From an uncultured Gammaproteobacteria bacterium (lineage in GTDB: Bacteria; Pseudomonadota; Gammaproteobacteria; JAGOUU01), in assembly GCA_964353115.1 (NCBI GenBank), contig CAYGUI010000002.1, forward strand, positions 1 through 60,738: 60,738 nucleotides of DNA, given 5' to 3'. The notes under the pieces are model-generated. The model did no database searches and was not told where the DNA came from. It worked only from the letters and a program-made list of their open reading frames with translations. The translations under genes were made by a program, and so were the position numbers. How positions within the stretch are numbered: position 1 is the first letter of the stretch; every line of letters begins with the position of its first letter. Below, in pieces: positions 10,856 to 56,177 of this stretch.

Positions 10856-10962
10856 TGTAAGTGTTCCAAATAATATAATTCAAGGGTAATATAGTAACCT
10901 AAAGAAGATTTGTCAATAAAGTCATTTTTAGCTACAATTATATTTTAAAGTATGGAAAAAAC

Positions 10963-13137
10963 ATGAGTAAAGATCCTTTTTTCGATCGAGAATCAGAAAA
11001 GTACGAGAATCCCATCGCAAGTCGCGAATATATTATTAAAGTTTTAAAAGAATCTGGTAGCGTAGTAACTCTCAAAAGTTTATTAAATAAATTAGACATC
11101 ACCGATAAAACACAGAAAAAAGCGCTAAAATTTCGCTTAAAAGCAATGGAGCGCGATGGCCAAGTAATTTCTATGAATAAAAATAGATATGCATTGCCTG
11201 ATAAAGTTCCACTTATGTCAGGTTATGTTGGTGCTACGCGTGATGGCAGTTGTTATGTGCGTGAAACTGTAAGTGGTAATAAATATTTTATTAAACCACG
11301 CCAATGGCGCATGATTTTCCCGGGCGATAAAATTCTGTTCCGTAAAAGTGGAGCACTTTTACGTGGTGAGCCTGAAGCTGTAATTCAAGAAGTATCTGAA
11401 AAAAATACTAAAGAAATAGTTTGTAAATTAAAAGAGCGCGAAGGTGTTATTTTTGCTTACCCAATTAATACCCGAGTTAATCGTGAAATTTTAATTCAAA
11501 ATAAAAATATAACTCTTATTGCTGATGGCATTGTTAGCGTAAAGCTTTTAGATTATCCAACTCTTGATAATCCAGCTGTTGGTAAAGTGGTCAAAAACTT
11601 AGGTACAGAAATTGATTACAGGTTAGCAGTTGAAATTGCATATCGCGATTATAATATTCCATATAAATGGCCTAAGGATGTTAAAGAAGAATCATATAAG
11701 ATTCCTGATTCGGTACAACAAGAAGATCTTAAAAATAGAACAGATTTACGTGATTTGCCGTTGGTAACTATCGATGGTGAAACTGCAAAAGATTTTGATG
11801 ATGCAGTATATTGTGAAGATAAAGGCGACGAAGGTTTTCGATTAATAGTTGCAATTGCTGATGTTGCTACTTATGTAAAAGAAGGTAGTGCATTAGATCG
11901 TGAGGCGCAAGAGCGCGGTAATTCGGTATATTTTCCAGGAACAGTTGTGCCAATGTTGCCAGAAAAATTATCTAATGGTCTTTGTTCGCTTAATCCTGGT
12001 GTTGATCGCTTGTGTTTAGTGTGTGATGCATTAATTAGTAACGAAGGAATTACCACAGAGTTTAAGTTTTATGCAGCTGTTATGAACTCAAAAGCACGTA
12101 TGACTTATAACAATGTTGCTAAAATTTTATATGACAATGATCGTAAGTTAAAAAAGCAATATGATTATGTTTTAGAAAATTTAGATAATCTTAATAAATT
12201 ATTTAATATTTTGCATAAAGCACGTGTAACTCGTGGAGCTATTGATTTTGATACAGTTGAAACTCAAATTATTTTTGATAAAAACAAAGAAATTGCGGAA
12301 ATTAAGCCAGTTGTACGTAATAACGCTCACAGAATTATTGAAGAATGCATGCTGGTTGCCAATGTTGCAGCAGCAAATTTTGTGACTAAAAATAAAATAA
12401 AAGTTTTATTTCGTAATCATGAAGAGCCGCCAAAAGAAAAAGCTGCAAATTTACGCAAATTTTTAGCTATGCACGGATTAGCATTGAGAAATAAAGACGA
12501 AATTTTACCGCAAGATTTGAATAAGGTTTTAGAGAAAATTCAAGATCGTCCGGATAAACAAATTATTGAAACTATAGTTTTACGCTCCATGGCGCAAGCA
12601 GGATATGAGGCGGAAAACAAAGGACATTTTGGTTTAGCATATGATGCTTATACGCATTTTACTTCTCCAATTAGACGTTATCCCGATTTATTTTTGCATC
12701 GTCAAATTCATAATTTTTTAGGAACTCATCATTTAAATAAAAGAGAAGAAATCATTCATGAAGAGCAGCTAAAAAGAGCGCATCAACTTGGCGAACAATG
12801 TTCGATGACTGAGCGTAGGGCTGATGATGCAACGCGCGATGTTACGGCTTGGTTAAAGTGCAAATATATGTACGATAAATTAGGTAATGTATATCCAGGA
12901 AGTATTACCGGGGTTACTAATTTTGGTATTTTTATAACACTTAAAGACTTTTATGTTGAAGGCCTTGTGCATATTACAACACTTGGCAAGCAAGAATATT
13001 TTGAATATGACGAAGTTAGATTCAGACTAATTGGCGAGCGTAGTGGAAAAATATATAGTATCGGCGATAAAGTAACGGTAAAAGTTATGCGAGTTGATCT
13101 TGATGAGAAGCAAATTGATTTTGATCTAGTAAAATAA
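10963..13137 (+). CDS. rnr: ribonuclease R
   Basis: RNB catalytic motif HFGLAYDAYTHFTSPIRRYPDLFLHRQI, a C-terminal S1-like domain (GSITGVTNFGIFITL), 724 aa. Confidence 0.95.
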   Translation: MSKDPFFDRESEKYENPIASREYIIKVLKESGSVVTLKSLLNKLDITDKTQKKALKFRLKAMERDGQVISMNKNRYALPDKVPLMSGYVGATRDGSCYVRETVSGNKYFIKPRQWRMIFPGDKILFRKSGALLRGEPEAVIQEVSEKNTKEIVCKLKEREGVIFAYPINTRVNREILIQNKNITLIADGIVSVKLLDYPTLDNPAVGKVVKNLGTEIDYRLAVEIAYRDYNIPYKWPKDVKEESYKIPDSVQQEDLKNRTDLRDLPLVTIDGETAKDFDDAVYCEDKGDEGFRLIVAIADVATYVKEGSALDREAQERGNSVYFPGTVVPMLPEKLSNGLCSLNPGVDRLCLVCDALISNEGITTEFKFYAAVMNSKARMTYNNVAKILYDNDRKLKKQYDYVLENLDNLNKLFNILHKARVTRGAIDFDTVETQIIFDKNKEIAEIKPVVRNNAHRIIEECMLVANVAAANFVTKNKIKVLFRNHEEPPKEKAANLRKFLAMHGLALRNKDEILPQDLNKVLEKIQDRPDKQIIETIVLRSMAQAGYEAENKGHFGLAYDAYTHFTSPIRRYPDLFLHRQIHNFLGTHHLNKREEIIHEEQLKRAHQLGEQCSMTERRADDATRDVTAWLKCKYMYDKLGNVYPGSITGVTNFGIFITLKDFYVEGLVHITTLGKQEYFEYDEVRFRLIGERSGKIYSIGDKVTVKVMRVDLDEKQIDFDLVK

Positions 13138-13184
13138 TATTTATGCTATAGTTTTTATTATATTCAATTTAATTGCAAGGATGC

Positions 13185-13991
13185 ATGAATTTAAAAAAAT
13201 ACGCTATTTTTTTCTTAAGCATATGTTTTTGTAACATTTTTGCGGCAGAGTATTGCGATAAAAGTAAATCATCTTGCCAACAAAAATGTCTTGAGATACA
13301 TAACTATCTTGATTCTAAGAAAAATGATTTAAAAAAGTATGCTAGCTTAATGCAAAAGGCGAAAGAAGCGCGTTGCATACAAAGGGTTAAGCGTTTTGAG
13401 CATGTAAATTTTTTAAAAAAGCACAATAAAAAAGAACCTGTAGTTGGACAATCTTCAAATCAGGCAATAATTCAAATTGCTGACAAATATAAAGTATTAA
13501 ATATATGTGACGATTTTGGTTCCAGTAATATTAAACAAATTGAAAATGAAAAAATTGAACTGGGATTTTTTCAATCAAGAAATCAATTTGAAAAAGAGAC
13601 TGGAACATTTTTAAGTGCTTTTGGAGACATAGCGGCTAATCCTGATGTTGGAGTCCAATCTGTCACTCCTGTTTGTTACAAAAAAAATTCTGGAAAGTTA
13701 AGTCGTTTGATAAATTTAGCGCCAGAGCAAGGTATTTATACTATAAACAAAGGTTATAAATTATATCCTGGAGATATAGAAAGAATAGCTTGTAAGCCAA
13801 AGCAAGGGACATCAAGAGAGTGCGTATTAATTACGGTCAATCGTTATCAATTAAATAAATACAATATAAATAATGGAAATGTTTTTGAATCAACATTAGG
13901 AAATCCAAATACTTTAAATCAAAGTTACATTAATAATTTTATTAAAAGTAGTGATTTAGTCTATCCTCAAAATATTAAAAGGTTAAATTAA
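13185..13991 (+). CDS. hypothetical secreted protein, first gene of the cysteine-rich operon
   Basis: ATG at 13185 (the track gives TTG 13173) yields the signal peptide MNLKKYAIFFLSICFCNIFA. The C-terminal ACKPKQGTSRECVLI resembles the start of the 4-Cys module of the downstream genes. The stop overlaps the next start (TAATG). Confidence 0.65.
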   Translation: MNLKKYAIFFLSICFCNIFAAEYCDKSKSSCQQKCLEIHNYLDSKKNDLKKYASLMQKAKEARCIQRVKRFEHVNFLKKHNKKEPVVGQSSNQAIIQIADKYKVLNICDDFGSSNIKQIENEKIELGFFQSRNQFEKETGTFLSAFGDIAANPDVGVQSVTPVCYKKNSGKLSRLINLAPEQGIYTINKGYKLYPGDIERIACKPKQGTSRECVLITVNRYQLNKYNINNGNVFESTLGNPNTLNQSYINNFIKSSDLVYPQNIKRLN

Positions 13992-15322
13992 TGAAGAAAT
14001 TTTTTATATTTTTAGTAGCAGGCATATTTAATATTTCATTTGCAAATACTAATCCACAAGATTTGGGGCCAATAACCTATGAATGTGCAGCAGTATGTAC
14101 TGATAATGTTAAATATTATAAGAATTTTTATAAGTTTGAAGCTGCAGCCTATAAAGGAGTTATAACTTATTCTCCTGAGAATAGTAATTATAGTTTGACT
14201 CAGCAGGATGTTATCGATCTTGGTAAATCATATTGTCAAGATATGGCATTAATTGCACTTACATGCGATCGAGAATCTAATAATTTAATCAATAAAAATA
14301 ATTATCCTGATAGCTCTTTTGGTGCAATGCCTGTTAATTGTAATGAAGAGACTCCGCCGCCACCAGCAAAAGAAGATTATATGTTGATTCCTGAAGAAAA
14401 TATTTATGTAAAATTATTTTCTCGTGAAAAAGAATCGGTTAATACTTTGATCTCTCAAGTCCAAGATCAAACTATCCCAAAAGTTGAGAGAATTGATGAG
14501 ATAGAAGATCAGTTAACAACTGCATCAGGGCAACAAAGCACTGATTTACAAAATGAAAGAACTAGGTTAGAAAATGAAATTAAACAAATATCTAGTCAAG
14601 CAACACCATATATTAAAGATATTAAAGAAGCATGTCCTTCTAATGCTGTAGATTATTCAATAATTGAAGTAGATGATGATGTATATAAAAAATATTGCTT
14701 TGAAAACTGTAAAGCTGATTTTAGCCGAATAAAGGCAGAGCAAGAAATACAGGGAGATATTTATAACGTTATAACTGCAGATGATTATAGTATTTGCTAC
14801 AAACAATGCCCAAGTTCACAAAAACTATATAAAGATTTTTATTGCTATCAAGATATTCCATGCCCAGTTTTTAATCCCTATGCTAAAGAGAATAATTCAC
14901 AAGATTTTAATTGTTATCAGATAAATACTAAGCAATTTAGTGTTTGTCCTTATCATGAATCTTTATTAAATAAAAATATTTTGTTCTCATCGACTAGTAA
15001 TATGTTTCTAAATTCAGGAACTTATGAGGTTAAATCTTTAAGAAATAATGATCAACAATGTTTAGATGAGCGTTACGGTATTAAAATTTATGGAAAATTG
15101 ATTGAACTTACTGGAGTTTCAGGTGATTTATTTTGCTTATATTTTGATGGAAGTTTATGGTCTATAACTAATAAGCTGACTCTTGGATTTGTAAAAATGA
15201 AAAATTTTAATTTCTTTGATTCAGAAAATAACTTAAAAAGAGAGCCTGCAAGAAATTATGCTCCGCATCAAGAAATACCTCCTGATGAAATTATGTTGAA
15301 TTTAGGTGCTACAGAAGGCTAA
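13991..15322 (+). CDS. hypothetical secreted cysteine-rich protein (443 aa)
   Basis: Signal peptide MKKFFIFLVAGIFNISFA, many Cys residues, and a central charged, coiled-coil-like stretch (ERIDEIEDQLT...LQNERTRLENEIKQ). I recognised no family. Confidence 0.7.
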   Translation: MKKFFIFLVAGIFNISFANTNPQDLGPITYECAAVCTDNVKYYKNFYKFEAAAYKGVITYSPENSNYSLTQQDVIDLGKSYCQDMALIALTCDRESNNLINKNNYPDSSFGAMPVNCNEETPPPPAKEDYMLIPEENIYVKLFSREKESVNTLISQVQDQTIPKVERIDEIEDQLTTASGQQSTDLQNERTRLENEIKQISSQATPYIKDIKEACPSNAVDYSIIEVDDDVYKKYCFENCKADFSRIKAEQEIQGDIYNVITADDYSICYKQCPSSQKLYKDFYCYQDIPCPVFNPYAKENNSQDFNCYQINTKQFSVCPYHESLLNKNILFSSTSNMFLNSGTYEVKSLRNNDQQCLDERYGIKIYGKLIELTGVSGDLFCLYFDGSLWSITNKLTLGFVKMKNFNFFDSENNLKREPARNYAPHQEIPPDEIMLNLGATEG

Positions 15323-15338
15323 GTAAAGAGGATCAAGG

Positions 15339-18300
15339 ATGACATTTAGAAAGATTACAGCAAGTTTCGTATTATTTACATATTTAGTATCAATTACGGC
15401 TACGAGCTTTGCTCTTAATAGTCCTCTTTCAAAAATAATTAGCTCCGGTAATCAGGATGCTAAACGAATAAGTGAAGTGTTAACTGGTGGAATTGCTGAT
15501 ACTGGCAGAGGTTGGTGCTGGAAAAGTAATTACTATAAAGATGATCCTCGGCCATTATCAGACTGCCCAAGTAATAAAGAAAAAGTTGGCGCATTATGTT
15601 TTCCTTTTTGCCCTGAAGGATATAGAAGATTGCCTGGAGATATTACAGGTATTTGTTATGCAAATTGTCCCTCTAATTCTACTGATACCTTATTATTTTG
15701 TGGTTTTAGTACCTCTTGTGATACTCAATTTTTTAAAAGTGGGGTAATGCCATCTTGCCCTAAAAAATCAATCATAGGTAGAAGGCCTTATACCGCTAAG
15801 TGCACTGCGTCAAGGTGGAAAAAAATAGTGACATTAGGAACTATTTGCTTAGCTAGACGTTATTTGAAGTGTAAAAATGATCGAGTTTTGGGCTCTGGTG
15901 GCTCTTTGTTGTGTTATGATCGATGCCCCAGTAATATGAGTATTAATGGAGTTGGGGATTGCTACGCAGGGTGTCCTAGCGGTTGGACAAGTCATGGGCT
16001 ACTTTGTAATAATCAGCCAGCGATGAATTGTCAGAATGAGCCAAGAATGGCTGCTGGATCTAAGCCATTGTGTCCAAAAAGTAGCAATGGAGCTGGTGCT
16101 CTTGGTACTCCATTACAATGTCCACCACATCGTGAACGTGATGGAGCATTGTGTTATACGCCATGTAACCCTGGTTATGATCGAACTGCTGGTTTTTGTT
16201 GGCAAGAATGTTCAAATTCTTTTTTCCCATCAAGTTGTGCTTCTGCATGCGCTATTTCCAGTGGTACATGTGGTAGTGTTATTGCTAATCAAGTAATTGC
16301 CCCAGTTATGGCGGTTGTAACTATTTTAGTTACAGCATTAAGTGCTGGTACAGCAGCACCAGCAATGAAAGCAGCAAATGCTGGTATGAAAGTTGCAGCA
16401 AATACTGCGAAGGTCGGTAGAATTTCCACAAGGGTTGCAAGAGCTGGACAAAGAATTTCAGGTAGTTTATTACGTTCAAGCAGTAGAATTTTGCAAAAGG
16501 TGGGGCAAAAACTAGGTACTTATAGTACAACTATTGCTACTCATACTTCAAAATCATTTGCTAAGCAAGTTGCTGTTAATTTAGCCAAATCTGCAGTAGC
16601 GCGCTCTTTTGCTGTTGGTGTTAGAGTTGGATGCCAAGAAGGTATGAAGCCACATTTGGCACAAAATAAAGATTTAGCGTATGTTTGTACAGCAGCCAGT
16701 GCTGCTACAGCAATTGTTGCTAATGTTGGACTTACTGCGGCATCAGGTGTTGCTGGTTATTCAGGTAAAGAATTGTTTAATGGCATTGCTCCAACTGGTC
16801 TTGCTGGAGTTAAAAATACTTTTAGTTTTACAACAGCGCTACCAGTATTGGCTAATTTAGCTAGTATGGGTGTTGATATGCGTAAGTATGCTTCTTGTCA
16901 AGATGAAGTAGCAAAAGCAACAACAGCATCAGCAGTAAGTATGCACTGTAAAAAATATGCTTCAATTATTAATGAATTGAAGAGAATAAATCAGGTTAAT
17001 ACTAAAAATAACGAAAACGATTTTACTAATTTAGTTAATTTAAGTAAGCAAGGTTGGGCATCTGCTGCAGCTAACTCATTTAGACTGGAAAATTTCCCTG
17101 CTATCAATAAACAGAATTGTGACAATCTAGAGATACTACGACAAAATGGTATGTGTCGTGTAGCAGGATTATTTATAAAATCTGATACACCTTTTAGTTA
17201 TATTGATTTTACAAAAGATACTAAATCTAATGATATTATCTTGACAGATTATACTGATGTTGGATTTACTCTTGAAGAAGCAATGGAGTGTAACAATGGA
17301 GCAGCTAATGATAAATGCCAATTTGCTGCGGTAATAGTCAACTCTAATATTCCTAATGTATTAAATCCACTAATAGAGGTGCAAAAATTAGTACAATCTA
17401 CTAATTTTCAACAAACATTTGGTTTGCCAACAGGTACTGTTTCGCAAGATGTTAATGTTAGCCCAATGGAAAAATTAATTTGTAAGGAGATTAATAATAA
17501 AGCTCGTTTAGAAGATCCAAATGCTGGTATACAGATTAGTGATGCTAATTGTAGAAAAATAATAGATTCTTACGAAAAATTTTATCAGTCAGGGGATCTT
17601 TCAAATATAGATCTAGATTTAGATACTATTAGTGGAAATTTAACTGATAAAGAAGAAGTGGAATGGCGCTTAAAAATGGAGTTATCAAATTCTATATTTG
17701 AAACTTCCAAAGCGATTCAAGAAAGTGATAGGGTCAATAGTATTTTAAATAAGGTTATTGATGAAGTAGAGCGACAAGGCTTTAATCGTGATGATGCCTC
17801 AAAATATGCTGGAGTTATTATTGACACTATAGCAACGGCAGTTTCAAAAAAATCAGCAGAAGCTCAGGCGCGTGAAATATATGAAGATCCATATTTTTGG
17901 TTGGGAGTTGCTTCGGCAGTTGATCCAACAGGGCTTGTGGCTGTAATTGATGCATTTTTATCTGATAAATGCCAAACAATTAGTTCATTACCATTTAGCC
18001 AAGTTATTAGAGATCCGCGTTTTAGTCTAGATAATGTGAATAAATATTATGCATTTAAATATGGAGTGCAAGCACTGAATGCTTCAGCCTCAAATGGTAT
18101 TGTTCATCCGGAAACAGTATTTGATCATGATAGGTGGTTTGCTGCAGTAGTAGATAACGATGAATTATTTGGTTATGTTTCCGATCTTAAGGATGTAAGG
18201 GTAGATGGATCTAGAGTAAATGTTGTAAAAGATGGTAAATCTGCGATTGAAATGATGATTGAGGTAATGCCAAGTTTACCAGAATTTAGTCGATTAAATT

Positions 18301-19265
18301 ATTCTTGGATCGACCAGTCATCATATGTTGGTAATAAGGATGTTTATAAAAAAATTCATATGGATAATAATTTAAATTTCTGGTATTGGAAATTAGTAAA
18401 TAATACTCCAACACTTTACGTGTATGTTTACAAAGATCAAGCTGAGAAAAAAGCCATTGATTATAATAAATCAGGCACGTATCAAGTTGAAAATAAACTC
18501 GTCAATAAAATAACAGGTGATATATCTATTGCTCCAAATGCTGCGGCTAGTGCAAAACAAAAATCTGGTGCAAATTTATTATTTAATGTTGACTTTGATA
18601 CAAATAGTAATTTACGTGCTAGAGAAAATACACATAATTTAACCGTATTTGATCCAACATCCGCTAACGAGCAACCAAAAGCAATAAATTGTTTAGATAA
18701 AGTAGATGCTTTAGATAATAGATCTTGCGTACTATTTTATGCTGATAGATGTGAAAATGTATTTGTTGCTGGAGATGGAAGCAAGGTTTTATCTACAGTG
18801 ACTGATGCAAATTGTGGCTCTGATACTTTAATTAAAAGAAGAATTGCTCGTGCAAAATATCATCAGCCTGGAGTAAAAACCTTCAAGCAAGATTATAAAA
18901 ATGTAATATTTATTGAATTTGAGGCTGTTAATAATAATGGAAATTTATCAGCTAGTATTGTTGGTGATGAAGAAATTAATAATGATCCAGGTCGTCAGGC
19001 TGATGCAATCATTTGTAAAGATAATGCTGATTCAAGCAATAATCGACAATGTGTTTTCATAAGCGAAGATTCTTGTCTTCGTGTAAGTATTGATAATTTT
19101 TCAGGTAGAGAAACTGCTCGTTCAGTTGATAGAAACTGTGGTTACGGTACAACGCAAAAACTTGTACAAATAAAGCAAGAATTTGCTGAGCCAGGTAAAA
19201 GAGCATATAACGATAAATTTTTAAATGCAGTATCAATTGACTTTATAGTCAGCATTACACCATGA
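15339..19265 (+). CDS. hypothetical large secreted/membrane protein (1308 aa): Cys-rich N-domain, Ala/Gly-rich hydrophobic region, two C-terminal 4-Cys modules
   Basis: Has a signal peptide and roughly 50 Cys in the first 310 aa, with a recurring LC[FY]xxCPxG[YW]...C[YW]xxC[PS] unit. A hydrophobic helix VIAPVMAVVTILVTALSAGTAA follows. C-terminal modules begin at Cys codons 18690 and 19014. Confidence 0.8.
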   Translation: MTFRKITASFVLFTYLVSITATSFALNSPLSKIISSGNQDAKRISEVLTGGIADTGRGWCWKSNYYKDDPRPLSDCPSNKEKVGALCFPFCPEGYRRLPGDITGICYANCPSNSTDTLLFCGFSTSCDTQFFKSGVMPSCPKKSIIGRRPYTAKCTASRWKKIVTLGTICLARRYLKCKNDRVLGSGGSLLCYDRCPSNMSINGVGDCYAGCPSGWTSHGLLCNNQPAMNCQNEPRMAAGSKPLCPKSSNGAGALGTPLQCPPHRERDGALCYTPCNPGYDRTAGFCWQECSNSFFPSSCASACAISSGTCGSVIANQVIAPVMAVVTILVTALSAGTAAPAMKAANAGMKVAANTAKVGRISTRVARAGQRISGSLLRSSSRILQKVGQKLGTYSTTIATHTSKSFAKQVAVNLAKSAVARSFAVGVRVGCQEGMKPHLAQNKDLAYVCTAASAATAIVANVGLTAASGVAGYSGKELFNGIAPTGLAGVKNTFSFTTALPVLANLASMGVDMRKYASCQDEVAKATTASAVSMHCKKYASIINELKRINQVNTKNNENDFTNLVNLSKQGWASAAANSFRLENFPAINKQNCDNLEILRQNGMCRVAGLFIKSDTPFSYIDFTKDTKSNDIILTDYTDVGFTLEEAMECNNGAANDKCQFAAVIVNSNIPNVLNPLIEVQKLVQSTNFQQTFGLPTGTVSQDVNVSPMEKLICKEINNKARLEDPNAGIQISDANCRKIIDSYEKFYQSGDLSNIDLDLDTISGNLTDKEEVEWRLKMELSNSIFETSKAIQESDRVNSILNKVIDEVERQGFNRDDASKYAGVIIDTIATAVSKKSAEAQAREIYEDPYFWLGVASAVDPTGLVAVIDAFLSDKCQTISSLPFSQVIRDPRFSLDNVNKYYAFKYGVQALNASASNGIVHPETVFDHDRWFAAVVDNDELFGYVSDLKDVRVDGSRVNVVKDGKSAIEMMIEVMPSLPEFSRLNYSWIDQSSYVGNKDVYKKIHMDNNLNFWYWKLVNNTPTLYVYVYKDQAEKKAIDYNKSGTYQVENKLVNKITGDISIAPNAAASAKQKSGANLLFNVDFDTNSNLRARENTHNLTVFDPTSANEQPKAINCLDKVDALDNRSCVLFYADRCENVFVAGDGSKVLSTVTDANCGSDTLIKRRIARAKYHQPGVKTFKQDYKNVIFIEFEAVNNNGNLSASIVGDEEINNDPGRQADAIICKDNADSSNNRQCVFISEDSCLRVSIDNFSGRETARSVDRNCGYGTTQKLVQIKQEFAEPGKRAYNDKFLNAVSIDFIVSITP

Positions 19266-19275
19266 GGAATGTAAT

Positions 19276-22200
19276 ATGAAATCAATATTAAAATTATTGC
19301 TTCTAATTTTTTTTGCAAGCTGTTATGCAGAAGAGTTGACTGTAAAAATTGAAAAGGGTCCAATAATTAATTTGAATGATCAAGCAGATATTTTAGCGGC
19401 TAATTGTAAAAATGATATCGATCAAGATAATAATAGAGAATGTGTTGTAATAAAAAGAAGTAAATGTATAAAAATATTATTTAATAATTTTAATGGTAGG
19501 GAAATATCAAGAACTGATGATAATACCTGTGGTTTTGATACTCCAGCAAAAAAAATAATAGCTGAGAGAGAATATTTTAAAAAAGGTGAAAAAGCTCATA
19601 AAAAAGAATTTAGTGAAATTGGCGCAATTAGATTTGATGTAAGATTAGGAAATGATACGCCAGTTATTGATATGATTGGTCATAGAAATATTATAGATAT
19701 GACTGGCGATCAATACGCTGTAAACTGTAAAGATCAGATTTTCCCAAATAATTTACGTGAGTGTTTTATTGCCTATGATAATAAATGTATAAAATTATAT
19801 TTTGATAATGATACAGGGGTAGAAAATACTGCTGCGAAAACAGAAGATACTAGCTGTAATGCATCGCAATCAGGGCGCGGAAAATTAAAAGAAAATTATA
19901 TTCAAGATGGAAGAAAAGCTCATAGACCATACCTAGAAGATTATTTAAAAATTAATTTTAAATTTACAGGTTCGAATTTACAAATAATAGATAATTCAAA
20001 TAATAAAACGACGTCTTTTACATATCCTTCAAATCAAACGCCGGATGCTGTAAATTGTCTTGATGAAATTTTTCCAGGAAACAATAGGCAATGTTTTTTA
20101 ATTTATTCTGATAAATGTATTAAAGTTACTTTAAATAATTATAGTTCTGAAACTGTTGCTGAAGAGGCAGATAATAGTTGTAATTATAGTAGTAAAGAAG
20201 GTCGTAATTCTATTCGTGATAAATTTTCTAAAAAAGGCGTTCAATATAGTAATGAAAATTTTATAAAAAATATTGCTCTTAAATTTGACGTTAAAAAAAA
20301 TAATAATGGTAAATTATCTGCTGATATATTAGATATAAGAAATATTTTAAATAAAGACTCTTCAGACTCTCCATCCGCAGTTATTTGTAAAAATAAAGTA
20401 GACTCATCTAATAACAGTAGAGAGTGTGTATATTTTTATCCTGAGTATTGTTTGCGTATAAATTTAGGTAATTTTAGTGGGATTGAGCTGAGTAAAACAA
20501 AAGATGTTAGCTGTGGTTACTCTATTAAAAATAATTTAGATAAAGTTCTTGAAGAGCTAAGAGAGGATGGTGAAAAGGCTTTTATTGATAATTTTTTTCC
20601 ATCGATACCATATAAATTTAATTTAAAATTAAACAAACCATATAATGGTCAGGATGATATTACAAAGAATACGGTAACTATAAATGATATAGCTTATCAT
20701 TTTACGGATAGGCAAATTACTCAAGTTCTTAATTTTATACCAGCATTTTATTGTAAAGATGTAAATTTAGACAATAAAGTGGAATGTGTAGAGGTTTTAG
20801 CTGATCATTGTATTAGAACTACTTTTTTAAATAAAGAATTTGATCCACAGGGTAAAAATTTTAAGGATATTTATGAATCGCAAATAACAGATGAAAAGTG
20901 TGGTTATTTAACAACGGAGTTATATAATATTTCAGCTAATGAATTAGCTGCTCAAAAAAAATCTGAAAGAAAATTTATCAATTCCCCATTTTACGATAAG
21001 CCTTCGGAGCAATTAGAAGTAAAAGTAGAAAGAGTTCCGTGGTTTTCAATACATGCTTCACCAGTCCTTACTCTTTCTGCCGGCGGTAAGTTTATTGTAA
21101 AACCTTTTATAGAAACAAAAGAAAGAGATTACTTATTTAACCAGTATGGAATTGATAGACCATATAGTATTATTTGTAAAAGGAGTAATTCTGCAAATGT
21201 AATAGATTGTGAGGTTATTAATGATAATAGTTGCCATGTTTTGCAATTTGATGCAACTAGTTATGATTATAAAAATACTAAAATTAGCAATAGTTGCACA
21301 AAATTCTCTAAAGGTAATATTACAGTAGATTTTAGTGCTCCTAATGGATATACATCAACAGCACCTTCAAATTATATTCAGTTAGAAAAATCTTATAAAG
21401 ATTATTTTTTATCAGCAGCTCCTAATATGCGCGGAACAGTAGTAGATAGCATATATGGAAATAATGATCATAGTTTTGTATTTCCAAGAGATAAAGATGG
21501 TTATTTAAATCTTAAAATTACAAATGTTGGTCGCCAGGATATTAATGTACCAATAACTATTTCTAATGTAGCTGGTATAGCATGTCAAAATCACAAATTA
21601 TTTCCAGGAACTTCATCGATTCCTGCGCCAAATATTGATAGTAGAAATTTATATTTTAGAGATAATAAATACTATCCGGCTTCTACATGGTGTTTAGCAA
21701 TCGGTGAGAATTCTTGTGAATATATAGAAATAAATAGTTCCGCTGAAGTTGTGTCACGAAAAAGAGATAATGATTGTGGTTATGTTTCAAATAAAAAACT
21801 AGAGCGTTCATTATGGTATGATCTATTTTTTCTTCAACCGGATTTACAATATTTAGTACCAGATAAAGATGCGCTATTTACCTATCATTATTTAATAGCT
21901 ATTGATTGGAAAAAAACAAACTCTCCTGTTTTTAGTTCTTCGGTGAGTGTATTTGATAGAAATAAATATTATTTTAATTATGGTTCTGAACTCAAATTTT
22001 GGATTGATCATTCAACCAATACTCCAATGGCTCAGGCCAGCATATTTCCAGATCTTATAAGTTCAGATGATCCAAAAAAAGTAATTTTTATTGATAAACA
22101 AGTTGGTTTTGATCCACCAAATGATAATTCTACAGCTATTGCTGCAGGATGCAAAAAAATAACCAAGGATAATCCTGATTATCGAGAATGTATTTTAGTT

Positions 22201-25200
22201 TTTGAGAATGGTTGCCATTTATTTGAACTTAATAATGAAAGTGGTGAAATAAAAAAAGCTTCATTAAGAAAAATTAAAGAATGTGGTTATAAAACACAAA
22301 AACAATTTTCTTATGCGAATGATTTTATAAAAGATTTAGAACTTCATAAGGATAAAACTTTAAAAATTGAATGGTTTAAAAAGCCAAGAGCTAATTTAAC
22401 ATTTGAAAAACAGCAATTTTCTGGTGCTGATAGGATTATTGTTTCTTCAGAAAATCGTACTGATAAAATAGTCGATCAAAATACAATATATAGAAAAAAT
22501 ACCGAAACATTTAACCCAGTTGCTGCTGTTTGTAAAGATGTGGATGCTAATGATCCAAATAATCGCGAATGTTTAATTGTATATCGTGATAAATGTGATT
22601 ATTTTAAAATAGATAATATGACTTCTGTTGAAGTTCCAAATAGTCGAGAAGTAAGAGAAGATTGTGGTTATTTGATTACCTCTCGTTATGTTGAGGCTAA
22701 GAAGTTTTTAGATGCTCAAAAAGATGAAACGCAAAAAATTATTTTGAATGATTTTCAAGCTTCTGATATTCAATTAGTTTTTTCATTACAAAATCAGCGT
22801 CCTATAATTAGTGCAGTAGGAATTACAACGCCAATCATAGATAGTTTGTATAAAACAGTTAATCTTGATTTTGCATTGGCTGCAGCTTGTAAAGATGAAG
22901 ACCGAGTCAATAATATTGGTTTTAGGGAATGTTTAGTCATATTTAAAGATGAATGTCATAAGTTTTTATTGGATAAATTAACAGGAGATATTAAAACAGG
23001 ATCAAAAGAAATTTTAACTAGTTGTGGAGCAAGTACTAAAGATAAATTTAATATCGCAAATAATTTTTATACTTCAAATCAAGTTAGCCAGGGTCAAAGC
23101 ATAAAAGGTAACGGTTACTATTCTCCAATAATTGAATTATCATTTATTTTAGATAGCTTAGGCTGGTTTTCGACAACTAAAGCGCCGGTTATTAAAGATT
23201 TGACCAATAGTAAAATAATAAGTGATCAATACTCAAAATCCTCAATTAGCAGTCGTTTTGCAGCAGCTGCTGCTTGTCAGCCATCAAAAAATTTGCCACC
23301 AGATTTTATAGAATGTTTAATTATTTATCCTGATAGCTGTAGATATTTTAAAATTGATCCTTACACTGGCGTAAAAATAGCAAATTCAGAAGAGATTAGA
23401 ACTTTTTGTGGCTATGAAGAAATTAATAAATATTATGTTTCTTCAAAATTTTATGACCCACTTACTTTAAATACGCAGAAAATTGCAACTAAAGATTACC
23501 ATCCTGTTATTGATACATTAAATTTTTCATTAAGAAGAGATCAAAATTTAAATGTAGATAATATAAAAATAGTATCCTCATCATCTGGATATAATATTAT
23601 TAATGTATCAGATTATATAGGAGGGCCTTATCCAAATATTGAATATGCTGCAGCTGCAGTATGTAAAGATCCTAGTCCTAATAATGAAGAAATTAGAGAG
23701 TGCTTATTAATTTTCAAAGATCAGTGTTTGCATTTTAAAATAAATAGTTACACAAGTTTTTATTATGAGCCAGGAAATATGTTTAGTCATAATAGATTAA
23801 AAGATAGGTGGAATAATTGCGGTTACTCTAATGTTAAAAAATATAAAGTAGCTAATGATTTTTATGAATCACAAATAAATTCAAGTGATAAAATACAGAC
23901 AGATAGGTATGTTAGACCAAAAATTCCACTTAACTTTAGCTTAAGTAACAATACTAATTCTCCAGTTATTGCAAGTGATCAGTTATCTGATCCTATAATA
24001 AAAGAAGATTATACGTTGCCATTTTTATCTACCCCAGAGAGCTCTGTAGCTGCTGGGTGTAAAGATTATCCGCTAAATCCAGCTCAAAAAGAATGTTTAG
24101 TAGTCTTTAAAGATTATTGTAGTTCTTTTAGGATTGACTCATATACTGGTGATATTAATGTAACTACTCAGTCATATCCTAGTGATTGTGGATATAGTAC
24201 ATTAGCAAAATATCTTTACGCTTTAAAATTCTTAGAGACTGTTGAAAAAGATCAAAAAGTAGTAAATTCTGATTTTTTACCACCATTGTTAAAATTATCT
24301 TTTAATAAAGATAGGTTTTATAGCACTGAAATTACAGGTATTGGTCGTACTAGTCCTATAATTGATAAATTCTATATAATAGGAGCTCTTCCTAATCAGG
24401 AATACGCCGAAGCTGCAGTTTGCCAAGATCCTGACGTAAATAATAACTCAAAAAGAAGATGTATGTTGATATTTGCTAACGAATGTCATTCTTTTGATAT
24501 TAATTCTTATACGGGAGATATTAATACGGCTAGTAAATCTATTACTACTACTTGTGGTTATAGTACTTCAGCCAAATTTAGAAATGCTAATGCATTTTAT
24601 ATGTTGCAAACGAAAGTAGATCAAAAAATTGCAGGTGCTAAATTTGCTGATCCAAACTGCTCATTACCTGATAGTAAATTAAAAGAGCTTGATGATTTTA
24701 TATTAAACAAATTTACTGGTTACTATCAAAATGATACTAATTTTATAAATATTAAATTGGATTTATCACGTTCAATAGATCGTCAATTTAATATTTCAAC
24801 TTGTAGTTCAGCAGATCCTTTGCCAGCAAAAATTGTGGAGTATAAAAATTTACTTAACACTGATGCATGTAATCTGGTATTAAAAACAATGAGTTTAGAT
24901 CTTGTTGGTGATAAAAGTAGAAATTTTTATACGTATGTTAATTCTCGTAAATTAATTAATACTTCTTTGCCTACAGTAACTAATCCATATAGCTTGGATA
25001 TTGATAAATTAAATTTATATAACTCAGGTATGAGTGATATGGATTTTATAACTGAATTTTTGGCAACGATACAAAATATAACAGCCAATAATTTTAGATC
25101 TGATTGGAATTGTAATATTAATGCGACTACAAATACTGCTACTAACATCGCGGCATTTAGTCGTGAGAACAGAATTGAACAAAATTTAGTTGCTAATAGA

Positions 25201-25527
25201 AATATTGCTAATAATACCAAAATAATGGATGGTCAAGCACAAAGAACTATATTATTTACTGCAAAAGAGCTTGATATATACTCAGCATTAAATTTAAACA
25301 TTAATATTAATATTCAGCCAGCAAATTGTGGAATAGTAGCTCTGTGTTTAAATAACTATGAATTTGATATTAAAGACGTATTAAGATTAACTAAAAGCTT
25401 AAAATCTCTAAAACTTAATATCGATACACAATGTTTTGCAAATAGAGGAAATGCTATAGTTAATGTTCCGTTATTGGTGTATTTTGATAGTAGTTGTAAT
25501 AGTGGTAATATGAGCCTTTCTTCTTAG
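19276..25527 (+). CDS. hypothetical giant secreted protein (2083 aa) built from 14 tandem 4-Cys modules plus a unique C-terminal domain
   Basis: Signal or lipoprotein-like N-terminus MKSILKLLLLIFFASCYA. Module first-Cys codons are at 19405, 19726, 20055, 20386, 20752, 21175, 21583, 22149, 22531, 22888, 23275, 23662, 24058 and 24421. The ORF is uninterrupted for 6.25 kb in an AT-rich genome. Confidence 0.85.
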   Translation: MKSILKLLLLIFFASCYAEELTVKIEKGPIINLNDQADILAANCKNDIDQDNNRECVVIKRSKCIKILFNNFNGREISRTDDNTCGFDTPAKKIIAEREYFKKGEKAHKKEFSEIGAIRFDVRLGNDTPVIDMIGHRNIIDMTGDQYAVNCKDQIFPNNLRECFIAYDNKCIKLYFDNDTGVENTAAKTEDTSCNASQSGRGKLKENYIQDGRKAHRPYLEDYLKINFKFTGSNLQIIDNSNNKTTSFTYPSNQTPDAVNCLDEIFPGNNRQCFLIYSDKCIKVTLNNYSSETVAEEADNSCNYSSKEGRNSIRDKFSKKGVQYSNENFIKNIALKFDVKKNNNGKLSADILDIRNILNKDSSDSPSAVICKNKVDSSNNSRECVYFYPEYCLRINLGNFSGIELSKTKDVSCGYSIKNNLDKVLEELREDGEKAFIDNFFPSIPYKFNLKLNKPYNGQDDITKNTVTINDIAYHFTDRQITQVLNFIPAFYCKDVNLDNKVECVEVLADHCIRTTFLNKEFDPQGKNFKDIYESQITDEKCGYLTTELYNISANELAAQKKSERKFINSPFYDKPSEQLEVKVERVPWFSIHASPVLTLSAGGKFIVKPFIETKERDYLFNQYGIDRPYSIICKRSNSANVIDCEVINDNSCHVLQFDATSYDYKNTKISNSCTKFSKGNITVDFSAPNGYTSTAPSNYIQLEKSYKDYFLSAAPNMRGTVVDSIYGNNDHSFVFPRDKDGYLNLKITNVGRQDINVPITISNVAGIACQNHKLFPGTSSIPAPNIDSRNLYFRDNKYYPASTWCLAIGENSCEYIEINSSAEVVSRKRDNDCGYVSNKKLERSLWYDLFFLQPDLQYLVPDKDALFTYHYLIAIDWKKTNSPVFSSSVSVFDRNKYYFNYGSELKFWIDHSTNTPMAQASIFPDLISSDDPKKVIFIDKQVGFDPPNDNSTAIAAGCKKITKDNPDYRECILVFENGCHLFELNNESGEIKKASLRKIKECGYKTQKQFSYANDFIKDLELHKDKTLKIEWFKKPRANLTFEKQQFSGADRIIVSSENRTDKIVDQNTIYRKNTETFNPVAAVCKDVDANDPNNRECLIVYRDKCDYFKIDNMTSVEVPNSREVREDCGYLITSRYVEAKKFLDAQKDETQKIILNDFQASDIQLVFSLQNQRPIISAVGITTPIIDSLYKTVNLDFALAAACKDEDRVNNIGFRECLVIFKDECHKFLLDKLTGDIKTGSKEILTSCGASTKDKFNIANNFYTSNQVSQGQSIKGNGYYSPIIELSFILDSLGWFSTTKAPVIKDLTNSKIISDQYSKSSISSRFAAAAACQPSKNLPPDFIECLIIYPDSCRYFKIDPYTGVKIANSEEIRTFCGYEEINKYYVSSKFYDPLTLNTQKIATKDYHPVIDTLNFSLRRDQNLNVDNIKIVSSSSGYNIINVSDYIGGPYPNIEYAAAAVCKDPSPNNEEIRECLLIFKDQCLHFKINSYTSFYYEPGNMFSHNRLKDRWNNCGYSNVKKYKVANDFYESQINSSDKIQTDRYVRPKIPLNFSLSNNTNSPVIASDQLSDPIIKEDYTLPFLSTPESSVAAGCKDYPLNPAQKECLVVFKDYCSSFRIDSYTGDINVTTQSYPSDCGYSTLAKYLYALKFLETVEKDQKVVNSDFLPPLLKLSFNKDRFYSTEITGIGRTSPIIDKFYIIGALPNQEYAEAAVCQDPDVNNNSKRRCMLIFANECHSFDINSYTGDINTASKSITTTCGYSTSAKFRNANAFYMLQTKVDQKIAGAKFADPNCSLPDSKLKELDDFILNKFTGYYQNDTNFINIKLDLSRSIDRQFNISTCSSADPLPAKIVEYKNLLNTDACNLVLKTMSLDLVGDKSRNFYTYVNSRKLINTSLPTVTNPYSLDIDKLNLYNSGMSDMDFITEFLATIQNITANNFRSDWNCNINATTNTATNIAAFSRENRIEQNLVANRNIANNTKIMDGQAQRTILFTAKELDIYSALNLNININIQPANCGIVALCLNNYEFDIKDVLRLTKSLKSLKLNIDTQCFANRGNAIVNVPLLVYFDSSCNSGNMSLSS

Positions 25528-25541
25528 TTAAAAGTAGTACC

Positions 25542-26273
25542 ATGAAAAAGAATATAATTGAACTTTACGGCATTCATGTCGCGGCAACAGCCTTACAAGA
25601 ATGCCCTGAAAATATAATAAAAATAGTTGCGATTGATGCTAAAAATAGCCCGAAAATAAATAGCCTGTTAAGCTTGGCGCGTAAATATGGAATTAGTATT
25701 GAAGTTCGCGCTGCTAAAAGGGCCGACGAAGAGTTGGCCCATCAGGGAATTTTTGTTGAATTAAAGGCACCTAAGCACAAGGGGCTGTCAGAGCTTGCAA
25801 GTTTTCTTGATAAAATAGCTGATAAAAAAGGTAAGCGAATTTTAATTTTAGATCAGGTGCAAGATCCGCGTAATTTGGGTGCTTGCCTACGCTCAGCTGA
25901 TGCAGCTGGTGTTGACTGTGTTATTTTGCCAGAAAAGCATAGCGCGCCACTATCAAGCGTTGCTTACAAATCTTCAGCTGGAGCGGCATTTTATTTACCA
26001 ATCTTTTACGTTAATAATTTGGCACAGAGCATACAAGTATTAAAAGATCATAATTTTTGGATTTATGGTAGTGATCTTAAAGCTCAAAAAACTTTGCATA
26101 ATATTGATTTTGCTGATAATTCAGTGATAGTCATGGGGTCGGAAGATACCGGGATTCGTGACTTAACAGCTAAAAGCTGCGACGAGCTGTTTTATATCCC
26201 AATGAAAGGACGCGTTGAGAGCCTTAATGTCTCGGTCGCAACGGGAATATCCTTGTTTTTTTGTGCAAAATAG
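25542..26273 (+). CDS. rlmB: 23S rRNA (guanosine-2'-O-)-methyltransferase RlmB (SpoU/TrmH family)
   Basis: SpoU motifs (DQVQDPRNLGACLRSADAAGV, MGSEDTGI, ESLNVSVA), 243 aa, positioned upstream of rpsF as in Pseudomonas. Confidence 0.85.
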   Translation: MKKNIIELYGIHVAATALQECPENIIKIVAIDAKNSPKINSLLSLARKYGISIEVRAAKRADEELAHQGIFVELKAPKHKGLSELASFLDKIADKKGKRILILDQVQDPRNLGACLRSADAAGVDCVILPEKHSAPLSSVAYKSSAGAAFYLPIFYVNNLAQSIQVLKDHNFWIYGSDLKAQKTLHNIDFADNSVIVMGSEDTGIRDLTAKSCDELFYIPMKGRVESLNVSVATGISLFFCAK

Positions 26274-26745: not shown

Positions 26746-26928
26746 ATGGCTAAAGAAAAGAAAAATTTTGATTACAAAGAAGATTTGAAAAAATATCTAA
26801 CAGAAACTTTTCAAATTACTCCTGCAAGAGTAAATGGTAACAGTGCAAAAGAACAACGTGCACTTAATAGAGCAGTTAAATTAGCGCGCTATTTAGCTCT
26901 AGTTCCATATACTGATCAACACAGATAG
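26746..26928 (+). CDS. rpsR: 30S ribosomal protein S18 (short N-terminus, 60 aa)
   Basis: C-terminal [20 protein letters not shown] matches the S18 core. Located between rpsF and rplI. Confidence 0.85.
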
Positions 26929-28683: not shown

Positions 28684-29457
28684 ATGAAAAAAATTGTATT
28701 TATAGCAATGATATTTTGTAGCGTTGGATTAGTGTCAGGATGTAAAAAGAAAACTCAGGAGCCTAATAAAGTAGTCACTACTCAAGTAACTACTCATCAG
28801 CCAGAGCATAAAAAAGTTGAAGTTGAGCAGCCAATGCAGCACGATGAAAATGCTCCAAAATTTGTTGAAGGTAAAGATTATAAAATTCTTCCTGAAAGTG
28901 TTAGAAATAATGATCAAGTTAAAGCATTTGTTGCGCAAGATGCTGGAAAAATTCAAGTAATAGAATTTTTCAGTTATGGATGCCCAGCGTGTAATGCATT
29001 AGAGCCGTATTTCGAAGGATGGATTAATATTCAACCAGAAAATGTTGTAATAAGAAGAGTTCCTGCAACTTTTGAACCTAGTTGGGATGTTTTAGCAAAA
29101 TTATATTTTTCGCTTGATCATTTTGGTTTGCTAGATTCTTTAAACATGAATGTTTGGAATTCCATTCATCGTTATGGTGAAAATTTATTCACTGCAGATA
29201 ACATATTTAAATGGTATCAAAAACAAGAAACTAATTCTAAGAGAGTGACACAGTATGAAATTGGTTTAAACGAATTTAAACAATATTTTAATTCTTTAAC
29301 TGTTGATAAGCAGGTAAAAGATAGTACAAAATTATTTTTTGCTTTTAAACTTTCATCAACACCTGCAGTTATTGTTGCTGGTAAGTATGAAGTTAGCCCA
29401 CATGGTAGCTGGCAGAATATGATGAATACGGTTTCTTATTTGGTGAAGAAAGGGTAA
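28684..29457 (+). CDS. dsbA: DsbA-family thiol:disulfide oxidoreductase, lipoprotein-type signal
   Basis: Thioredoxin-fold active site FFSYGCPACNALEP and lipobox LVSGC. Follows cytochrome c4, as in Pseudomonas-type synteny. Confidence 0.75.
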   Translation: MKKIVFIAMIFCSVGLVSGCKKKTQEPNKVVTTQVTTHQPEHKKVEVEQPMQHDENAPKFVEGKDYKILPESVRNNDQVKAFVAQDAGKIQVIEFFSYGCPACNALEPYFEGWINIQPENVVIRRVPATFEPSWDVLAKLYFSLDHFGLLDSLNMNVWNSIHRYGENLFTADNIFKWYQKQETNSKRVTQYEIGLNEFKQYFNSLTVDKQVKDSTKLFFAFKLSSTPAVIVAGKYEVSPHGSWQNMMNTVSYLVKKG

Positions 29458-35613: not shown

Positions 35614-36126
35614 CTACACACTCTTAGCTCTTCTTTGTGAAGGTGCAGTAATAACTGCAGCGCCTGTTTCAAGTCTATCTTCAGCTTCATGCGCTTTATT
35701 TAATTTACGTAATGCAGATTTTGTAAGTCTTATTGGCGCTGCTTCTTCACTTCTTTCTTTATCTTTCTCAGAACTAATTGATTTAGAAGATTCTTTTTTA
35801 TCATCTTTAGAAAACAAAGCCTTAAAGAAACACTTAGCTGCTGTTGTCAAAGCTGCAACACCATAAGTAAATCCTGCACCAGAAGCTGCGCCAATAAGGC
35901 CTCCAGCTATTGTTATTGAAAATATTGAAACTATTAGTAAAGATGGTGCTAATATTGGCGCTAAAAAGGGCATAACAAGCGCAAAAGCTGCAAAAGCCCC
36001 TACAATTCCACATACTATCCCAGCAGTCGCCATTAAAAAGGTCAAACTAGAGTCATTTCCACCATGAACGCTAAAATCACCGATTTCTTCTTGATAATGC
36101 TTTTTGAATTTTTCTATAAATTTCAT
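35614..36126 (-). CDS. hypothetical membrane protein (170 aa) with a long Gly/Ala-rich hydrophobic block and a charged tail
   Basis: ORF with a ~75-aa continuous hydrophobic region and a Lys/Glu/Ser-rich C-terminus. I recognised no family. Confidence 0.5.
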   Translation of the reverse strand: MKFIEKFKKHYQEEIGDFSVHGGNDSSLTFLMATAGIVCGIVGAFAAFALVMPFLAPILAPSLLIVSIFSITIAGGLIGAASGAGFTYGVAALTTAAKCFFKALFSKDDKKESSKSISSEKDKERSEEAAPIRLTKSALRKLNKAHEAEDRLETGAAVITAPSQRRAKSV

Positions 36127-38916: not shown

Positions 38917-38917
38917 T

Positions 38918-55348: not shown

Positions 55349-55361
55349 TTTTATTTACCTC

Positions 55362-55742: not shown

Positions 55743-55764
55743 TTTAATTTCTCCTAAATTATTT

Positions 55765-56151: not shown

Positions 56152-56177
56152 ATAATTCCCTTTATTTTTCTTTTATT

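Follow-up and report, generated by a model that had tools for sequence, protein, structure and literature searches.

The stretch of DNA analysed here (the window) is the whole contig CAYGUI010000002.1, 60,738 bp long with ~32% GC, from an uncultured gammaproteobacterium. Its subject is a cluster of four genes, ORF1 to ORF4, that lies between rnr and rlmB and is predicted to encode exported cysteine-rich proteins, two of which carry tandem copies of a previously undescribed four-cysteine module. The 12.4 kb between rnr and rlmB is occupied by these four same-strand open reading frames (ORFs), and the spacing along rnr-ORF1-ORF2-ORF3-ORF4-rlmB is 47 nt (to the ATG at 13185), a 1-nt overlap, and 16, 10 and 14 nt. 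An earlier note on this DNA had described four ORFs of 268, 443, 1308 and 2083 aa with junctions of -1, +16, +10 and 14 nt, and the coordinates obtained here agree with that description. The start of ORF1 is most likely the ATG at 13185, which is preceded by an AAGGA motif and is also the start in the public gene call. ORFs as long as 1308 and 2083 codons cannot be put down to chance, since sequence of ~30% GC should by chance contain a stop about once in 12 codons. Additionally, the GC content at third codon positions (GC3, 0.14-0.19) and the synonymous codon usage of the four genes are those of the genuine genes of the contig.

The flanks of the cluster are housekeeping genes. In E. coli K-12 rlmB directly follows rnr, as the earlier note had said, and the order in Pseudomonas is presumably rnr-rlmB-rpsF-rpsR-rplI. 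The note had also found no mobility genes at the flanks, and this holds: cydB and cydA lie upstream of rnr on the opposite strand, and rlmB is followed by rpsF, rpsR (60 aa), rplI, engB (on the opposite strand), a dihaem cytochrome c gene, a gene for a DsbA/Thioredoxin_4-like protein and a gene for a LapA-type aminopeptidase. A promoter scan places the sole strong promoter-like site of the block at 10910-10938, upstream of rnr, and the scan contains no terminator-like site at either junction of the cluster. A single transcript would fit the tight gaps and the lack of any such site, and co-transcription of rnr, ORF1-4 and rlmB is plausible.

All four proteins begin with a signal peptide, read directly from the sequence, in which a K/R-rich start precedes a hydrophobic core and a cleavage site of the A-x-A type follows. 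The predicted signal peptides are MNLKKYAIFFLSICFCNIFA in ORF1 (cleaved before AE), MKKFFIFLVAGIFNISFA in ORF2 (before NT) and MKSILKLLLLIFFASCYA in ORF4 (before EE), and that of ORF3 ends in TSFA before LN. ORF4 also has a possible lipobox, FFAS followed by C, in which a lysine at position -10 breaks the PROSITE rule as we take it to be worded, and ORF4 was considered as a possible lipoprotein. Cysteine makes up 3.1-3.7% of the four proteins versus a median of ~1.1% for 40 other genes of the window, a three- to four-fold enrichment over the neighbouring genes, and the cysteine counts of the mature proteins are all even. The four products had been described as cysteine-rich and as starting with signal peptides, and both properties are borne out here. 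A candidate periplasmic oxidoreductase of the DsbA/Thioredoxin_4 type is encoded about 3 kb downstream. The gene is present where a DsbA had been reported, but its matches to the DsbA and Thioredoxin_4 families are all weak, and the protein bears an N-terminal extension of ~85 aa. It is a possible oxidant for the cysteine-rich cargo, linked to it by proximity alone.

The four-Cys module is best represented in ORF4, in which 14 tandem copies are followed by a non-repeat domain. The module is ~120 aa long and has the pattern C-x10-13-C-x7-C-x19-30-C[GNT][YFAK], with one copy having a first gap of x35, and its last cysteine is usually followed by G-Y. Two further copies form the C-terminus of ORF3. 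In a MAFFT alignment of the 16 copies (14 from ORF4 and 2 from ORF3) three of the cysteines never vary and the fourth hardly does, and a direct table of cysteine positions has all four cysteines in each of the 16 copies. A hidden Markov model (HMM) built from ORF4 modules 8-14 alone finds ORF4 modules 1-7 with E 1e-30 and ORF3 with E 3e-6, scaled to 1.84e9 sequences. The homology of the modules is not circular, because this leave-out HMM stays significant. The copies share 11-46% amino-acid identity (mean ~24%) and are alike in DNA (64-86%) in short patches only. They are thus strongly diverged, so the duplications and the array itself are old. Two subtypes of module can be told apart, one that groups ORF3 modules 1-2 with ORF4 modules 1-4 and one made up of ORF4 modules 8-14. 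The C-terminal modules of ORF3 are reciprocally closest to ORF4 modules 1 and 3, with ORF3 module 2 and ORF4 module 1 each being the other's best match (32% identity). The subtypes and the reciprocal best match indicate that the array runs across the boundary between the ORF3 and ORF4 genes.

AlphaFold2 modelling of the module, with the 16 copies as the alignment, gave a mean predicted local distance difference test score (pLDDT) of 82.4, with residues 11-90 above 90 and the last ~30 residues less certain. The modelled module is a compact beta-rich domain with one helix. A Foldseek comparison of the model with the PDB gave a best E of 0.24 and a template modelling (TM) score of at most 0.31, and comparison with BFVD gave a best E of 0.043 and a TM score of 0.33. 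Judged against the PDB and BFVD, the model therefore points provisionally to a new fold. Membership of the family was defined as a profile match together with C1-x(9-16)-C2-x7-C3-x(19-30)-C4-G-[YF] in tandem copies of ~110-130 aa. By these profile and pattern comparisons the module is a new domain family, defined by ORF3, ORF4 and two proteins from outside the window, P0004 and P0005. ORF4 (14 copies) and ORF3 (2 copies) belong to it by this definition, and ORF1 has only a half-module of 6.6 bits and ORF2 none. The C-terminal domain of ORF4 gave only a sub-threshold match to Exop_C (galactose-binding-like), at 15.7 bits versus a cutoff of 26.1.

ORF3 features a cysteine-rich N-terminal domain (the head), an Ala/Gly/Ser-rich region that is predicted to be helical, a Cys-poor middle stretch of ~580 aa and the C-terminal pair of modules. 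Six C[YFW]xxC motifs lie in the head, spread over three repeats that follow G-x-LCYxxCPxGYxxxGxC[YW]xxC. Residues 311-343 form a marginally hydrophobic segment of 33 aa with a Kyte-Doolittle value of 2.24 and a summed Hessa-scale score of +1.3 kcal/mol, like that of ORF3's own signal peptide. A transmembrane anchor was considered for this segment and not accepted, since the segment is only marginally hydrophobic. An AlphaFold2 model of ORF3 aa 40-560, made from a two-sequence alignment, had a pLDDT of 30.7; it was unusable and was discarded, its helices being indicative only.

In ORF1 the C-terminus (aa 204-237, counting from the TTG at 13173) amounts to a weak half-module with C1 and C2 only, and it resembles the first third of the module with 6.6 bits and with a BLAST E of 5.5e-4 in a single pairwise comparison. 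Pieces of the module had been claimed for three of the proteins; this stands for ORF4 (14 copies) and ORF3 (2 copies), and in ORF1 it comes down to the weak half-module. ORF2 has clusters of cysteines at both ends and, by eye, a charged, heptad-like central stretch at ~aa 140-215. Two C[YF]xxC motifs in ORF2 resemble those of the ORF3 N-terminus, and the four-Cys module is absent from ORF2. The C[YF]xxC-type motif does not occur once in the 13,750 aa of the other ORFs of the window. ORF1 and ORF2 had no match in any family library scanned.

Table 1. Coordinates and properties of the rnr-rlmB cluster, its parts and other features of the window discussed in the text (masses, isoelectric points and cysteine counts are those of the mature proteins)
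Feature	Position	Strand	Details
GDA1/CD39 ecto-NTPDase, eukaryote-type	4406-5521	+	Pfam 177 bits; best PDB matches 3AAP and 4BR*, E ~1e-43
741-aa orphan ORF	5527-7752	+	no match in Pfam, PHROGs, PADLOC; no signal peptide
rnr (RNase R)	10963-13137	+	upstream flank; TIGR02063 818 bits
ORF1	13185-13991	+	268 aa; alternative TTG start at 13173; 28 kDa, pI 9.4, 8 Cys
ORF2	13991-15322	+	443 aa; 49 kDa, pI 4.6, 16 Cys
ORF3	15339-19265	+	1308 aa; 140 kDa, pI 8.3, 46 Cys
ORF3 N-terminal Cys-rich domain (head)	15513-16271	+	aa 59-311, 27 Cys
ORF3 Ala/Gly/Ser-rich, predicted helical region	16269-16898	+	aa 311-520
ORF3 C-terminal pair of four-Cys modules	18648-19262	+	aa 1104-1308
ORF4	19276-25527	+	2083 aa; 234 kDa, pI 6.1, 64 Cys
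ORF4 array of 14 tandem four-Cys modules	19363-24708	+	aa 30-1811; period 107-189 aa
ORF4 C-terminal non-repeat domain	24709-25524	+	~272 aa, Asn-rich, 7 Cys
rlmB	25542-26273	+	downstream flank; TIGR00186 213 bits; then rpsF, rpsR, rplI
DsbA/Thioredoxin_4-like periplasmic oxidoreductase candidate	28684-29457	+	NF008198 33.7 bits; PF13462 24.8 bits; PF01323 23.7 bits
tmRNA	36985-37353	-	tag ANDENFASADLKAA

Comparison of ORF1-4 with Pfam, NCBIfam, PHROGs and PADLOC, as whole proteins and as isolated segments, gave no significant match, and the sub-threshold library matches to BRE4, FadA, Cadherin, Exop_C, Polyoma_VP2 and PbeC are regarded as noise. Searches of the PDB by sequence, with the single proteins and with profiles A1 and A4, found nothing below E 0.03, and tblastn of ORF2, ORF3 and ORF4 against plasmids found no match. 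That the four proteins show no motif of a nameable family had been stated from the letters alone, and these searches likewise place them in no described family.

Several known systems were considered and rejected. A giant adhesin of the RTX type, exported by a type I secretion system (T1SS), does not fit, as there is no RTX or HemolysinCabind match and all four proteins have N-terminal signal peptides; the ATP-binding cassette genes in the window are of the Mla and Lpt types only. Type V secretion (autotransporter or two-partner) was rejected on the grounds that ORF1-4 and the flanks have no Autotransporter, two-partner secretion (TPS), ShlB or POTRA match and that the C-termini are without an aromatic terminal residue. 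The Big, cadherin and HYR repeats were set aside because Cadherin was matched once, at 14.5 bits against a cutoff of 28.8, and Foldseek gave no fold match. Rhs/YD proteins, Tc toxins and polymorphic toxins gave no Pfam, NCBIfam or PADLOC match, and no small immunity-like ORF is present, rlmB lying 14 nt downstream. The epidermal growth factor (EGF) domain, thrombospondin (TSP) type 3 and other eukaryotic Cys-rich repeats matched none of ORF1-4, not even when isolated segments were scanned with E values of up to 10 allowed. Pfam is also negative for ORF1-4 with regard to the chlamydial OmcA and OmcB proteins (the Chlam_OMP families).

The module is rare. The earlier note had suggested that metagenomes be searched with an HMM of the module, and a profile search over all 1.84 billion cluster representatives found it in four proteins only, the two from the window and two uncharacterised metagenomic proteins, P0004 (E 3.7e-27) and P0005 (E 8.3e-11). 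P0004 is a protein of 1618 aa with 9 modules from a 41.6-kb bacterial contig of 33.8% GC (ENA ERZ15185898; L001 10001-14857), where its gene stands alone in the vicinity of rpsU-dnaG-rpoD and rho. The modules are preceded by ~12 DxDxDG-containing repeats and a CxxC-rich region, and Pfam does not recognise any part of this arrangement. P0005 is a protein of 1111 aa with 8 modules and a signal peptide from a 9.7-kb contig of 33% GC (Logan SRR28640819; L002). The gene 18 nt upstream of it (the pair lies at L002 1-1110 and 1128-4463) has EGF_CA, cEGF and FXa_inhibition matches above the Pfam cutoffs, and its Cys-rich repeats match P0004 aa 467-581 with E 1e-5. The relationship between P0004 and P0005 with its upstream gene looks like one of fusion or fission. 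Like ORF4, both proteins feature tandem arrays with C...C-x7-C...CG[YF] and are encoded on low-GC bacterial contigs amid housekeeping genes. They differ from ORF4 in several respects, however. Their mutual similarity (E 6e-42) is far closer than that of either to ORF4 (~1e-5), they form a solo gene or a two-gene unit that is not located at rnr-rlmB whereas the window cluster has four genes, and their arrays are joined to DxDxDG repeats, CxxC-rich regions and EGF_CA, which are absent from the window. No homologues of ORF1, ORF2 or the ORF3 head were found among their neighbours, and no gene common to the window and the L001 or L002 contigs was found.

The ORF3 head has one distant relative of its own among the proteins searched. 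A word-indexed search of 5.8 billion proteins returned for ORF3, with the best 8000 candidates scored, only itself and P0002, so that further relatives may exist, and for ORF4 it returned ORF4 alone. P0002 is an ORF of 1608 aa from a sequence of 48% GC (ENA ERZ27293425), and its probable start is at an internal signal peptide near aa 382. The head of ORF3 is homologous to P0002 aa 579-855 with 24% identity (E 5e-22 pairwise and E 8e-18 in the database search). P0002 shares with ORF3 the Cys-rich head, the helical region with its hydrophobic stretch and a further hydrophobic motif. The two differ in that P0002 continues into HYR domains and a CarboxypepD_reg-like domain where ORF3 has four-Cys modules, and the domain shared by them extends over ~400 aa in P0002 versus ~840 aa in ORF3. 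Both new domains, the module and the ORF3 head, therefore adjoin extracellular adhesion-type, Cys-rich or Ig-like domains elsewhere, and an adhesin-like role is suggested on this basis. Exact look-ups of ORF3, ORF4 and RpsR found no other record. Locus scans, run up to their caps, were empty for rnr and P0004 in genome contigs, for A2 and ORF4 in metagenome contigs and for A2 in viral contigs, and literature searches found nothing on the module family, the sample accessions or an insertion between rnr and rlmB.

The organism belongs to a lineage without a close sequenced relative in the collections searched. CydA, KdsA, HemL, AccD, L9, S6 and RlmB each form a cluster of one at 90% identity in a set of ~15 billion proteins, and the apparent uniqueness is partly due to this lack of sequenced close relatives. 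Several features of the window hint at its lifestyle. The GDA1/CD39 ecto-nucleoside triphosphate diphosphohydrolase (NTPDase) is of eukaryote type, and its best PDB matches are structures that we take to be those of Legionella pneumophila NTPDase1. The best NCBIfam model of the aminopeptidase downstream of the cluster is the Legionella-type LapA. The 741-aa orphan has an (SPV)x7 repeat at its N-terminus, carries the motif YPAAPAGTL(K/E)SS more than once, ends in a bilobed hydrophobic stretch of ~60 aa, lies where the local GC rises up to 0.44 (at 7-8 kb) and resembles, in its sequence features, Inc-type or vacuole-membrane effectors of intracellular bacteria. The tag of the transfer-messenger RNA (tmRNA) presumably resembles that of Legionella. 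From the CD39 NTPDase, the LapA model and the orphan, the bacterium is probably Legionellales-like and host-associated. Eukaryote-like extracellular proteins of Legionellales, such as the CD39 NTPDase also found in the window, are like ORF1-4 in combining a signal peptide with a eukaryote-type extracellular or Cys-rich architecture in a Legionella-like genome context. Unlike these proteins, the four-Cys module has no detected eukaryotic or other homologue, and only the ORF3 head has a relative.

Taken together, these features tentatively favour the interpretation that the four genes specify an adhesin-like fibre, displayed on the surface or secreted, that would be exported via Sec and stabilised by disulfides, in a host-associated gammaproteobacterium that is probably Legionellales-like. 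Giant repetitive bacterial adhesins and ORF4 are alike in being very large and exported and in having many tandem beta-rich domains of ~100 aa and a distinct terminal domain, and by this analogy ORF4 probably works like them. ORF4 differs from giant adhesins in having no match in sequence or fold to Ig-like, cadherin or other repeats, a Sec signal in place of a C-terminal T1SS signal, and no beta-barrel or TPS component. Additionally, there are four cysteines in every ORF4 domain, which is unusual for the repeats of Gram-negative adhesins. The domain family is new, and the kind of protein, a tandem-domain exported giant, is already known.

In the proposed mechanism the four proteins would be exported via Sec, and in the periplasm their cysteines would undergo oxidation, for which the DsbA-like protein is a possible catalyst. 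Oxidative folding in the periplasm is suggested because the cysteine counts are even, each domain has a four-Cys pattern and a DsbA-like gene is nearby. The modules of ORF4 would line up as beads on a string to make a long shaft, tipped by the C-terminal domain. ORF3 would provide the Cys-rich head together with a weakly hydrophobic helical segment that could associate with a membrane, and it may dock onto ORF4 via the like modules. ORF1, with its half-module, and ORF2, which is coiled-coil-like and carries CYxxC motifs, would be accessory subunits. The outer membrane would be crossed by a general route such as type II secretion, because no dedicated component is encoded in the cluster or the window. 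The role of the fibre would be contact with the surface of a eukaryotic host, and an adhesin-like role is suggested by the tandem-domain architecture and by the EGF and HYR domains found alongside the two new domains elsewhere. The earlier note had proposed an adhesin, coat or host-interaction complex, which is a reasonable suggestion and is strengthened by the domain company of the module.

Some points weigh against a fibre of this kind. No beta-barrel, TPS, RTX, usher, outer-membrane anchor or dedicated secretion or assembly gene is encoded in the 60.7-kb window. The division of ORF3 into a head and membrane-active helices is drawn from the primary sequence, as the pLDDT of its model is 30.7. 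The hydrophobic segment is borderline at +1.3 kcal/mol, and if it acted as a stop-transfer anchor it would leave the ORF3 modules in the cytoplasm. The taxonomic and host assignment is indirect. Finally, a joint query of ORF1, ORF2 and the ORF3 N-terminus against 5.8 billion proteins gave no matches and missed even the window's own proteins, which makes it a weak negative for ORF1 and ORF2.

A more specific version of the proposal, which would be rather unlikely to hold in all its parts, is that the cluster encodes a disulfide-locked surface apparatus of a kind not seen before, with a fold that has no known relative and an array split across genes, that serves host contact in an unsampled Legionellales-like lineage. 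In such an apparatus ORF3 would be a membrane-associated base with two modules, and the 14 modules of ORF4 would make the shaft, its last domain the tip. The half-module of ORF1 would serve as a cap or adaptor, ORF2 would be a coiled-coil accessory, and assembly would proceed via module-module contacts.

The cysteine content could also be explained if a resistant, transmissive form of the cell had an envelope or coat lattice held together by disulfides; the four proteins would then remain in the periplasm or outer envelope, and cross-links between molecules would stiffen the cell. The chlamydial outer-membrane complex (OmcA and OmcB) consists of co-encoded, Sec-exported, Cys-rich envelope proteins of an intracellular bacterium that need periplasmic oxidation, and ORF1-4 can be likened to it as a co-encoded, Sec-exported, Cys-rich set with no sequence similarity. 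All four proteins are exported with 3-4% cysteine, the DsbA-like and dihaem cytochrome c genes are nearby, the window hints at an intracellular lifestyle, and the site in a housekeeping operon together with native codon usage fits a core structural role. However, the chlamydial Omc proteins are not tandem-repeat giants, and the even cysteine counts and the invariant four-Cys pattern of the module point to disulfides within domains, not between molecules. Tandem arrays as long as 14 domains are a usual feature of fibres and not of lattices, the family searches linked ORF1-4 neither to OmcA and OmcB nor to a different envelope family, and the relatives of the module are fused to EGF- or HYR-type adhesion domains. 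A lattice of this type is unlikely.

The hydrophobic segment of ORF3 raises another explanation, a secreted membrane-active toxin or translocon in which the helical region of ORF3 would insert in the membrane of a host or competitor and the modules of ORF3 and ORF4 would bind a receptor or take part in delivery. The 33-aa segment is followed by basic amphipathic sequence, an arrangement that is kept in P0002, and a second hydrophobic motif, (D/A)PTGL..V...F, occurs in P0002 and twice in ORF3. The AlphaFold2 secondary structure of ORF3 aa 300-560 is helical, at low confidence. This explanation is quite improbable, however, as Pfam, NCBIfam and the PDB yield no match to a pore-former or toxin family, the hydrophobicity is marginal, there is no immunity-like small gene, and the ORF3 model is too poor for fold comparison.

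The position of the cluster had led the earlier note to regard it as an island-like insertion, and a recently acquired genomic island, eukaryotic or otherwise foreign, could have landed between rnr and rlmB. The cluster does interrupt a gene pair that is adjacent in E. coli and presumably in Pseudomonas, the sole homologue of the ORF3 head is on a contig of 48% GC whose origin is possibly eukaryotic, and an 11-nt direct repeat, ATGCTATAGTT, is found at 13143-13153, just after the rnr stop, and at 25451-25461, 75 nt before the ORF4 stop. The claim of an island rests on position alone, however: a comparison of composition with the flanks, which had been put forward as a check, finds GC3 and codon usage within the range of the flanking genes. 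The higher GC in the 5' part of ORF3 comes from codon positions 1 and 2, reflecting Ala, Gly and Cys content, and not from GC3. No integrase, transposase, tRNA, convincing target duplication or flanking repeat was found at the borders of the cluster, and the module copies diverged anciently. The 11-nt repeat is probably fortuitous, because ~0.06 chance matches are expected and its second copy is inside the coding sequence of ORF4. Since codon usage is native and there are neither mobility genes nor sequenced close relatives, a recent island is unsupported and very doubtful, and the insertion is undatable. A chimeric assembly or a set of decaying, functionless pseudogenes, which a single contig without close relatives for a cross-check might suggest, can be given almost no weight: all four ORFs are intact and reach 2083 codons at 30% GC, the junctions with the genes on either side are tight, codon usage is uniform and 64/64 module cysteines are conserved.

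The remainder of the window is housekeeping, and secretion-system genes were not found in it. The ORF of rpsR (26746-26928, + strand) encodes 60 aa with no longer in-frame start after the preceding stop, and E. coli S18 has 75 aa. A dGTPase of the NCBIfam "anti-phage dGTPase" type (449 bits) is encoded at 34275-35501 (+ strand). Two orphan ORFs lie beside the tmRNA gene at 35614-36126 and 36292-36867 (both - strand), one of them with a sub-threshold Phage_head_fibr match of 19.8 bits, and an element that had integrated at ssrA could have left them behind. The ORF at 38903-39358 (+ strand), adjoining a photolyase gene, encodes a protein of the Host_attach/baeRF family 12 type. At 54965-56567 (- strand) there are four tandem paralogous genes for proteins of 126-129 aa with a signal peptide, a conserved LTGNFTRxNFExFK motif and two conserved cysteines each; one copy was scanned against Pfam and had no match.

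The four-Cys module can be folded with confidence, is without a detectable sequence or structural relative and always occurs in long tandem arrays near adhesion-type Cys-rich domains. The ribosome/RNA-metabolism block, in which the genes have native codon usage, is an unusual place for a 12-kb accessory system. If the surface-fibre reading is true, the module would be a new building block for bacterial adhesins, with each repeat stapled by disulfides, a feature that is rare in Gram-negatives, and the cluster could offer a lead on the means by which a host-associated, unsampled lineage makes contact with its host.

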